DNA of 44,743 nt from Reclinomonas americana ATCC 50394 (taxonomy: Eukaryota). Below the pieces are notes generated by a model that saw only the letters and a program-made list of their open reading frames with translations, made no database searches and was not told the DNA's origin. The DNA lies in assembly GCA_048213135.1 (NCBI GenBank), contig PS015021.1, positions 1 through 44,743 of the forward strand, read 5' to 3'. The position numbers were made by a program, and so were the translations under genes. Shown here in pieces: positions 1,285 through 4,200 of this stretch. The first letter of the stretch is position 1; the number at the start of each line of letters is the position of its first letter.

Positions 1285-4200
1285 CAACAGAGACAGCTTG
1301 TTGCTCTTTGTCTCTCTCTCTTCTCTGCATGTGTGTGCTTTGTGTGTGTGTGTGTGTGTGTGTGTGTCGACTGATGCGTTTGTCTCTCATCATCTACAGT
1401 GGCCTTTGATATCAATGGCAACGTGCTTGATCAGGTGTACTATGGTGAACGAGAGTGTTTTTCTCTTTGATTCACACTGTGAGAGTGCTTTCTTGTTTAC
1501 ATATTGTATGCCGGTTTTTTGTTTTTTGTTTGTTTTGTGCGTAGCCAAACTCGACGCACTTGGTGGTGCGGTGACGCACTCGGGCGATAATCGCACGGGC
1601 GAGGGTTCCGGTGATGATGAATCGGTGTGCATCGCAGTTGGATGCATCTCATTCACCCTTCCTCTCTCTCCCTTCTCCTCTTCTTCTCCTTCTCCTTCTC
1701 CCTCTCCTTCTTCTTGTTCTTCTTCTTGTTCTTGTTCTTCTTCTTCTTCTTGTTCTTGTTCTTGTTCTTGTTCTTGTTCTTCTTGTTCTTGTTCTTGTTC
1801 TTGTTCTTGTTCTTGTTCTTCTTGTTCCTCTTCTTGTTCTTCTTGTTCTTCTTCTTGCTCTTCTTGTTCTTCTTCTTGCTCTTCTTCTTCTTCTTCTTCT
1901 TCTTCTTCTTCTTCTTCTTCTTCTCTCTCTCTCTCTNNNNNNNNNNNNNNNNNNNNNNNNNNNNNNNNNNNNNNNNNNNNNNNNNNNNNNNNNNNNNNNN
2001 NNNNNNNNNNNNNNNNNNNNNNNNNNNNNNNNNNNNNNNNNNNNNNNNNNNNNNNNNNNNNNNNNNNNNNNNNNNNNNNNNNNNNNNNNNNNNNNNNNNN
2101 NNNNNNNNNNNNNNNNNNNNNNNNNNNNNNNNNNNNNNNNNNNNNNNNNNNNNNNNNNNNNNNNNNNNNNNNNNNNNNNNNNNNNNNNNNNNNNNNNNNN
2201 NNNNNNNNNNNNNNNNNNNNCACCCTTCGCTCTCTCGCTCAGGTCATCATCAACTTTGATCGCCTGCCGGAGCAGGTGGTGGCGCTGTGCTTGGTGGTGC
2301 GTCAAAGTGCCCCCCTCACCTATTCAGTTTTCTTCTTCTCAATCTCACAGTCTATCGTATGCTCCACAGGTCACCAGGTAGCTCACCACCGTCGTCGCCT
2401 TCTACATTCTCTCCCCTCTAATGCGACTTCTCGCGCAGCTACTCGGGCGAGCCGTTCACCGCCTTCAAGACGGCCAATGTGCGCGTGCTGGATCCGCGCG
2501 GGGGCGAGCTGTACAAGTTGTACATTGGTGCCACGGGCCCGCACACTGGTCTCCTGCTGGCGAAGATGTTCCGCGCGCAGGCGCCCGACGGTCGCATGGT
2601 GTGGAACCTGCACTGCTGTGCCGACGCGGCGCAAGCGCGATCGTTTGCCGACATGGTGCCCGTGATGCAGGTGGGTGGAGAATTGGAGAAAGGGGGGCTT
2701 TCTCTCGCTCTCTTTCTCTCTCTCTCTCTGCCAGCCTGCCTGTTTCTTGTTCTTTCTCTGTTTCTCATTCTCTCTCACTTGCTGTCTCTCTAGATTTCTC
2801 TCTTCGGCTCTCTTTGTCTCTCTCTCTCACACACACTTTGTTTCTCTCTCTCTCTTTGTTTCTCTCTCTCTCTCTCGCTCTCTCTTTGTTTCTCTGTTTC
2901 TCACTTTGTTTCTATCTCTTCACTTTCTTTTCTATCTCTCTGGCTGCCTCATTCTCATTCTCTCTTTGTTTGTAATTCTCTCTCCCTTCTCTCTCCCTCC
3001 AAATGCTTTGTGATTGTGTAAACTTTGCATCTCTCCCCACCCCCATCCTCTCACTCATCTTTGGGTACTTTCTCCGCAGGGCTCGCTGAAGCAAGTGTTC
3101 CCGTCGGTCAAGGTCTCACAGCAAGTCGCCGTGCCCGTTGTGCGCAAGGGTGAGCGCATCGCCATTGACCCATCGCTCAACCTGATCACCATTGGTCTCG
3201 GATGGGATGTTGTGCCTGGCGCCACCATGGACCTCGGTTCGTGCATCCTCTTCGTGACGCGTCGCCAGTCCACGCGCTAACTGCCTCAATGTAGACGCGA
3301 CATGCCTGGCATTTGATCGGTTTGCCGGCTTCCTGGAGATGGAGTCAGTCTCTTTTACGCGCAAGCAGAACTCCAATCGCTCGGTCCAGCACTCGGGCGA
3401 CGAGCTGACTGGCGCTGCCGCTGGTGTGTTCCCTCTGTGTTTGGCGTGTCCGTCACCTGTTGCTGACTCACGCTCTCTCTCTCTTTCTCCTCTCTCTTTG
3501 TGGCGTCTCCATAGGGTGAGTGGAGATGACATCACGCTGATCGTGTGTCCCTTGAGCTCATCACCACGTGTACCACAGCGACGATGAGAGGATTAATGTG
3601 CTGTTGCACTGCGTGCCGCGCGAGGTGTTCTCCCTGTGCTTTGTCGTCACCATTTACACCATGAGTTGCGTGCACAGCGAGAGAGAAAAATGAGAGTGTG
3701 TGGTTTCGCTCATCGCGCCTCTTCATTTCACCGCAGACCGCACGTTCCGCGAGGTCAAGACTGCGTACGCCCGGTTCGTTGATCGCCGTGCGTCCCGCGG
3801 CTTCCTCTTTCCACTCCACTCAACCTCCATATTCTGCGCAGCATGCTCGACAACGCTGGTCGTGAGATTGTGCGCTACCCGCTGGCCGAGCACGGACAGA
3901 ACAATGCGCTGATGGTGGTGTGCCTCCACCGCACGCCTCTCGGCTGGCGCCTGGTGGCCATGGGTCAGCCGGCTCACGGTACCCTCGGCAAGGACTGCGT
4001 GCCGGCGCTGACGCCGCTCGTCAGGCGGTACATGGACTCGCAGGATTTGGCCGCTGTTGACAGAGCAGTTGCGTGGGCAATAAGGGGAAGGGAGGGAAAA
4101 GGGGGGAGGAAAGAAATGGGAAGGGGATGAGGGAGGGGGAAAGAGAGACAAAGGTGGAAGGAATGTGTTATTCCAGTTAGTTTTCCCACTCGTTTCGTGT

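Follow-up and report, generated by a model that had tools for sequence, protein, structure and literature searches.

A predicted one-nucleotide exon in a two-repeat TerD gene of Reclinomonas americana

The TerD gene and its exons

The 44,743-nucleotide (nt) window analysed here comprises positions 1 to 44,743 of the forward strand of contig PS015021.1 in the assembly of Reclinomonas americana ATCC 50394 (GCA_048213135.1). It is draft, intron-dense and fairly GC-rich eukaryotic DNA with CT/CA microsatellites, and near its left end lies a stress-protein gene whose predicted product contains two TerD repeats. The gene model was rebuilt by hand and tested by translation, and it includes one single G, at position 3515 (G3515), which is predicted to form an exon of its own between exons 10 and 11 (Table 1). 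An extra donor at 4068 indicates that the gene goes on past the end of the model at 4067.

The Pfam TerD profile (PF02342) detects the single exons only below threshold (best score 23.3 bits, cut-off 25.3), and five of six exons gave matches, with E-values up to 0.14. After splicing, the model reaches 350 bits (E = 2.6e-108) on a profile of 72 relatives that have two repeats and carry PF02342. The first repeat carries the loop GDxxTG-xxxG-DDE, in the form SGDNRTGEGSGDDE, and with G3515 retained the second repeat shows identical spacing. Among named relatives the closest are a 'putative stress protein' of Paratrimastix pyriformis and a transcript of Ploeotia vitrea, with an identity of at most 51% over exon 13; a HMMER protein search with this exon gave 14 matches, the best of them 51% identical, and thus no close orthologue. 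A word-indexed protein search (exon 8, longer proteins) gave 0 matches, and in a metagenome scan with exon 13 four loci fit one peptide pattern only, none of them being a TerD gene.

Two of the exons are very short, with 19 nt at 1231-1249 and only 8 nt at 2370-2377, the latter lying between introns of 73 and 61 nt. Both the reading frame and the conserved motifs need these two exons, and very short exons seem to be routine for this organism.

Table 1. Features of the TerD gene and of the junction between its exons 10 and 11. Slashes within sequences mark exon-intron borders, here and in the text.
Feature	Position	Strand	Description
Two-repeat TerD gene, rebuilt	939..4067	+	13 exons plus G3515; stop-free translation, 388 codons
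Exons 1 to 5	939-982, 1070-1115, 1231-1249, 1400-1444, 1545-1624	+	
Exons 6 to 10	2243-2296, 2370-2377, 2439-2670, 3080-3236, 3295-3423	+	
Single base G, then exons 11 to 13	3515, then 3579-3664, 3737-3773, 3842-4067	+	
Exon 10	3295..3423	+	second repeat to ...HSGDELTGAAA plus first base of the Gly codon; ends in phase 1; Pfam TerD positions 37-83
Intron 1	3424..3514	+	91 nt; donor G/GTGTGT 8.8 bits, CT-rich tract, acceptor CCATAG 7.8 bits
Rival donor T/GTTCCCT	3428..3434	+	single 151-nt intron 3428-3578, adds one Val; 7.8 bits
Candidate branch motifs CTGAC and CTCAC (overlapping)	3463..3471	+	48 and 44 nt upstream of the AG at 3513-3514
Proposed one-base exon	3515	+	G, middle base of the Gly codon G-G-C before DDE
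Intron 2	3516..3578	+	63 nt; donor G/GTGAGT 6.5 bits, acceptor CCACAG 3.6 bits
Exon 11	3579..3664	+	last base of the Gly codon, then DDERINVLLHCVPREVFSLCFVVTIYT...; Pfam TerD positions 87-112

Anatomy of the junction between exons 10 and 11

A preliminary description of this DNA, made from its letters, had proposed a single-nucleotide exon at this junction, and the elements on which it relied can all be read in the sequence. Exon 10 ends GCT G at 3420-3423, in phase 1, with GTGTGT directly after it from 3424; on the other side CACAG runs up to 3578, and exon 11, which opens C GAC GAT GAG at 3579, needs phase 2. Between them stands CCATAG/G/GTGAGT (3509-3521), with an AG at 3513-3514, the lone G at 3515 and a GT at 3516-3517, and the coordinates agree with the proposed intron lengths of 91 nt (3424-3514) and 63 nt (3516-3578). 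In the model translation the loop of the second repeat, with G3515 included, aligns to the SGDNRTGEGSGDDE loop of the first repeat with no gap, again as proposed. A donor of the form A/GTTGCGT follows directly after exon 11, at 3665.

Each of the two introns flanking G3515 is complete alone, having a donor, a branch-like motif, a pyrimidine tract, an acceptor and a length of at least the local minimum of 58 nt. Both begin with GT and end with AG, their acceptors are of the form YAG, their donors follow a G as do 17 of the 38 donors in our intron catalogue (see below), and their lengths fall inside the 58-409 nt range of introns in the window. The donor hexamer of intron 1, GTGTGT, is used again at 1250 in the same gene, and the tract between its candidate branch motifs and CCATAG is CT-rich, with no A and no AG. 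Intron 2 has a branch-like CTCAT at 3557-3561, which lies at a typical distance of 18 nt from the acceptor. Comparison of both introns with the rest of the window gave CT-repeat matches only, and therefore no intron family. Read in the frame of exon 10, the stretch 3519-3545 inside intron 2 reads SGDDITLIV, similar to the opening of exon 11 (GDDE-x-I-x-V-L); the likeness may be accidental or may be left over from a duplicated exon.

With G3515 the full model is free of stops; its omission breaks the frame and brings in stops. There is no other G in 3424-3578 with AG to its left and GT to its right, and a one-base exon is therefore the sole route by which canonical introns lead to a messenger RNA (mRNA) with one G at this place. 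The single-intron GT-AG alternatives in the right phase use donors at 3428, 3437 or 3446 and add 1, 4 or 7 residues respectively. Two further candidates were tried and rejected: a longer exon beginning at 3515 meets a TGA after one codon, and minus-one ribosomal frameshifting on the G-less mRNA finds no slippery heptamer at the junction.

The strongest outer sites, the donor at 3424 and the acceptor at 3578, could also pair with each other, and the junction might then be spliced unproductively from 3423 to 3579, with a frameshift and stops, as would happen in a gene copy undergoing decay or in a non-productive isoform under regulation. Outside this junction the gene is nevertheless intact over its 388 codons and matches its relatives (E-value given above), and the DDE codons after 3579 stand in a frame that only the extra base restores. 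Unproductive splicing is, on these grounds, a very improbable account of the junction.

GTT-type donors and decoy sites

Three junctions of the TerD gene (between 1120 and 1231, 3423 and 3579, and 3787 and 3842) appeared at first to be one G short each, and introns shifted by one base throughout the genome were considered as a common explanation. This was discarded, as two of the three were solved by canonical introns. The working donor of exon 2 is A/GTTGAGT at 1116 and not GTGAGA at 1121, and that of exon 12 is G/GTTCGT at 3774 and not GTGCGT at 3788; with donors 1116 and 3774 in use, the two TerD repeats align gaplessly at both places. The decoy donors at 1121 and 3788 look canonical and leave the frame one base short. 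In both places (within 1116-1126 and 3774-3793) the stretch from true donor to decoy is itself in frame, so a naive model reads plausible wrong residues there.

GTT-type donors are not confined to these two sites. The heptamer GTTGCGT occurs 21 times in the window where 8.3 occurrences are expected, a number reached by none of 100 shuffles, and 19 of the 21 fall on the gene-bearing + strand (for example at 3665, 4068, 26632, 29300 and 34572). Among the 21 catalogued donors that follow an exon base other than G, 13 begin GTTG and none begins with GTT and a base other than G. An Rfam scan of the window, in which a U1 gene was sought, returned 0 matches. Once the GTT-type donors are applied, the junction between 3423 and 3579 is the only odd one in the TerD gene.

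Two further readings would lead to an mRNA indistinguishable from that of the one-base exon. In one, a non-canonical intron displaced by a single base (GT..CA at 3424-3577, or TG..AG at 3425-3578) would be removed in one step to yield the identical in-frame message, so complementary DNA (cDNA) with one G between 3423 and 3579 would not fully discriminate between it and the one-base exon. No other junction of the gene needs such borders, however, now that those between 1120 and 1231 and between 3787 and 3842 have been solved as GT-AG; the shifted intron would also leave the inner acceptor-G-donor arrangement unexplained, and to our knowledge GT..CA or TG..AG borders are not an established class of spliceosomal introns. 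We consider this reading barely credible. In the other, the assembly or the sequencing would be at fault, and the genome itself would have an extra G at 3423-3424 and a single canonical intron running from G/GTGTGT to CACAG. Such an error could arise in a draft sequence such as this, but it would have to be an indel at the exact spot, combined with a strong acceptor-G-donor arrangement by chance, and the other 12 junctions of the TerD gene need no correction. A missing G is accordingly rated as highly improbable.

Splice-site strength and chance occurrence

Splice sites were scored with matrices from a catalogue of 26 frame-obligatory introns found by an exon-chain parser, to which the TerD gene contributed its 11 uncontested introns and also its donor at 4068. 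The parser was applied to the long + strand gene (24.8-44.3 kb) and to the EF-hand region. It could not rebuild the TerD gene, whose exons are too short for its codon model, and at a low intron penalty it over-predicted introns; only the frame-obligatory ones were therefore kept. A matrix derived from the 12 donors of the TerD gene only was too weak to separate the models. The motif CTNAY is present in 33 of 36 introns; its distance from the acceptor is 62 nt in one of these and 10-35 nt in the other 32.

The likelihood that the arrangement at G3515 is accidental was estimated in several ways. The loose pattern YAGNGTRNGT is not enriched, with six occurrences in the window and 4.58 expected, and its expectation on one strand of a 151-nt interval is about 0.008. 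Both strands of the window (89 kb) contain 360 AG-N-GT sites, and only three, that at G3515 included, score as high on both matrices; of the other two, one is the true acceptor at 1069 in front of exon sequence and the other lies antisense at 35619. The 3,382 nt of catalogued introns hold 11 AG-N-GT sites, none of which reaches at least 5 bits on both matrices. A strong acceptor-N-donor arrangement is thus expected about 0.003 times in a 151-nt interval, and the lone base is moreover G, the one of the four bases that restores glycine (Gly). The juxtaposition of a strong acceptor and a strong donor around G3515 by chance is unlikely.

Two other sites of this form drew attention. That at 28853 (CAG/A/GTCTGT) has a good acceptor and a poor donor and lies inside a predicted intron, and the acceptor at 1069 belongs to an exon whose first bases are, by coincidence, T GTG. 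Neither site has the look of another one-base exon.

The chief competitor of the one-base exon is a single 151-nt intron, 3428-3578, with the donor T/GTTCCCT; the product would contain an extra valine (Val) in the loop (G-V-DDE), and the inner CCATAG/G/GTGAGT would be a chance look-alike. The preliminary description had named this donor as the alternative and called it weak. It is present, is in frame and adds a Val as described, and the resulting model is stop-free; its 7.8 bits are mid-range, and by this score the word weak does not apply. The donor fits loosely with the GTT-type donors used in the window after exon ends other than G, and the intron shares its acceptor and a typical branch motif with intron 2. 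On the other side, no catalogued donor of this class begins, as this one does, with GTT and a base other than G, and a better donor, G/GTGTGT at 3424, stands 4 nt upstream, and its pairing with the acceptor at 3578 would put the message out of frame. Only three of the 38 catalogued donors are in a like situation, with an equal or better GT within 8 nt. The Val form further needs both the rare coincidence estimated above and the accident that the lone base is the G that restores Gly.

Fit to the TerD family

Whether the family favours a loop with or without an added residue was assessed from related proteins. Of 133 fetched, 122 yielded a total of 181 distinct repeats with the motif GD..xG...D[DNE]E, and in 168 of these the stretch between xG and D[DNE]E has four residues ending in Gly, as the one-base-exon model gives. 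Among the first 14 relatives the four-residue spacing was found in 12 of 15 repeats. The Pfam TerD match of exon 10 extrapolates to profile position 85 and that of exon 11 begins at 87, leaving one position (86) between them. In tblastn comparisons the matches of relatives end at the loop Gly in exon 10 and restart at DDE in exon 11, and the relatives' residues at the loop Gly (3423-3425) and at the first D (3580) are consecutive in seven repeats from six relatives (for example residues 102 and 103, and 311 and 312, of relative P0012, and 189 and 190 of P0005). The exception is P0013, which has a longer loop.

Scored against the profile of 72 two-repeat relatives, the one-base-exon model reaches 350.1 bits and the Val form 342.5, which is 7.6 lower; insertions of 4 and 7 residues score 341.7 and 341.0 bits. 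Keeping G3515 is the only path made entirely of GT-AG introns that gives the loop usual in the family, G-DDE.

Several observations weigh against a one-base exon. Five-residue loops, the length that the Val form would have, are found in 4 of the 181 repeats, one of them reading G-F-DEE, so the family tolerates an extra residue. The donor matrix for exon ends other than G does not reject the rival at 3428, which at 7.8 bits stands between the donors of introns 1 and 2 (8.8 and 6.5). The nearest CTNAY of intron 1 lies 44-48 nt from the AG, which is atypical in this window; branch motifs at such distances are workable in other organisms. The catalogue of 37 introns is predicted from sequence, and the splice-site matrices were trained on that same catalogue. 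Lastly, the assembly of the window is a draft with many N gaps, as noted for the missing-G error.

Taking both sides together, the Val form is unlikely, and all readings other than it and the one-base exon carry, even jointly, only a small probability. We consider it quite probable that G3515 is a one-base exon of the two-repeat TerD gene. This is the reading that the preliminary description had proposed, and with its rivals tested it is the best supported one.

Proposed splicing pathway

In the proposed pathway G3515 would supply the middle base of a Gly codon split G/G/C over three exons, and this Gly would directly precede the DDE of the conserved GDxxTG-xxxG-DDE loop in the second TerD repeat. 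Joining 3423 to 3579 with the G left out would put the message out of frame, with stops soon after. The contacts of exon definition cannot reach across a single base, so intron definition, with the two introns removed successively, is the likely mode. Either order of removal is workable on paper. If intron 1 were removed first, ...G/GTGAGT would stay intact as a donor for intron 2; if intron 2 were removed first, CCATAG/G would stay intact as an acceptor for intron 1. What the analysis shows is the anatomy of the junction, its one canonical path, the match to the protein family and how seldom such a site arises by chance; that splicing proceeds in this way in the cell, and the order of the two steps, we infer.

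It is fairly likely that the organism relies on strict intron definition and constitutively splices exons down to one base. G3515 would then be the extreme of a range of ultra-short exons spread over the genome, the 8-nt exon among them, and would be a one-base case outside plants and fungi. If this is true, the pair of introns around it, which occupies phases 1 and 2 of a single codon, would be the trace of introns gained twice, side by side.

Relation to known one-base exons

The preliminary description had called one-base exons very rarely documented; they are indeed rare, yet they are on record in plants and fungi. The Arabidopsis gene APC11 has a constitutive one-base exon, shown by reporter assays and reverse transcription PCR, for which intron definition with stepwise intron removal was argued (Guo and Liu 2015, PMC4674806). 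There too one base that the frame requires lies between two complete GT-AG introns, and the exon had been missed by annotation (PMC4674806). The APC11 exon differs in having been shown experimentally, whereas G3515 is predicted from sequence, and it belongs to another gene family and to a plant instead of an intron-dense protist.

In Fusarium a one-nucleotide exon of the cytochrome P450 gene CYP621A is conserved in 20 orthologues and has read support in the Sequence Read Archive (Nelson and Syed 2026, PMC12940212). Like G3515, its lone base occupies the middle position of a Gly codon within a conserved motif, and the exon was likewise recognised through a phase mismatch and a family alignment (PMC12940212). 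Orthologues and reads stand behind the Fusarium case, whereas G3515 comes from one sequence. In plant VPS55 and APC11, one-nucleotide microexons are conserved throughout the land plants, with alternative forms arising by intron retention, and such microexons are easily lost in annotation and read mapping (Yu et al. 2022, PMC8831610). They resemble G3515 in having a strong donor of the GTRAGT type after the one-base exon, here GTGAGT (PMC8831610). The nuclear one-base exons met in the literature searched, which was covered in part, are those of plants and fungi (APC11, VPS55 and CYP621A), in addition to organellar cases.

At a recursive splice site, or ratchet point, an AG and a GT abut and nothing is retained. 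G3515 is similar in that an acceptor stands beside a donor and removal would be stepwise (compare the Discussion of PMC4674806). It differs in that one base, needed for the frame, separates the AG from the GT, and in that the interval of only 155 nt contains no long intron to subdivide. A recursive site, which is a zero-length exon, was ruled out on the grounds that one base is retained. Fungal stwintrons consist of two introns in immediate contact that are excised consecutively (e.g. PMC12403724, PMC5587772). There, a signal of the external intron is split by the internal one, whereas the introns at G3515 each have their own complete donor, branch-like motif and acceptor. A stwintron of the [D1,2] type, checked by hand, was rejected: the base after the first intron is G and not T, and the signals are intact in the unspliced sequence.

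Implications for annotation and splicing

A one-base exon is the physical limit of exon size. With each further example, splice sites are seen to be chosen with no help from exon sequence, and two spliceosomes to act in turn one base apart. Should RNA bear the exon out, minimal exons could be studied in this organism as in a natural model. The one-base exon at G3515 is probably best described as a well-supported prediction that introduces no new principle, being a new case of an already known kind. It matters mainly as an annotation trap and as one more hint that the organism can cope with extremely short exons. Ordinary gene-finding programs will shift the frame of the TerD gene, cut it short or pad it, and with the predicted one-base exon and the decoy donors at 1121 and 3788 the genome needs annotation that is aware of both microexons and GTT-type donors.

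Neighbouring genes and repeats

The TerD gene is followed in the window by a lysine-methyltransferase-like gene (Methyltransf_16, 5438-6517) and by EF-hand protein genes in tandem (12131-12619). Farther to the right are a single-exon WD40 protein gene (19333-20580), a hemerythrin gene (21310-21765) and a very long repetitive gene rich in Thr, Ser, Gly and Asn on the + strand (about 26000-44260), which has about 30 short introns in the parse. A Bactofilin-like match (39989-43381, E = 2.5e-12) lies inside this long gene, and a Peptidase_S74 (endosialidase chaperone) domain (43611-44258, E = 5.8e-10) lies at its end. Just downstream of the donor at 4068, a repeat search revealed a tandem duplication of about 171 nt (4100-4270 and 4271-4442, 93-95% identical), missed by Tandem Repeats Finder, which is probably inside the next intron of the TerD gene.

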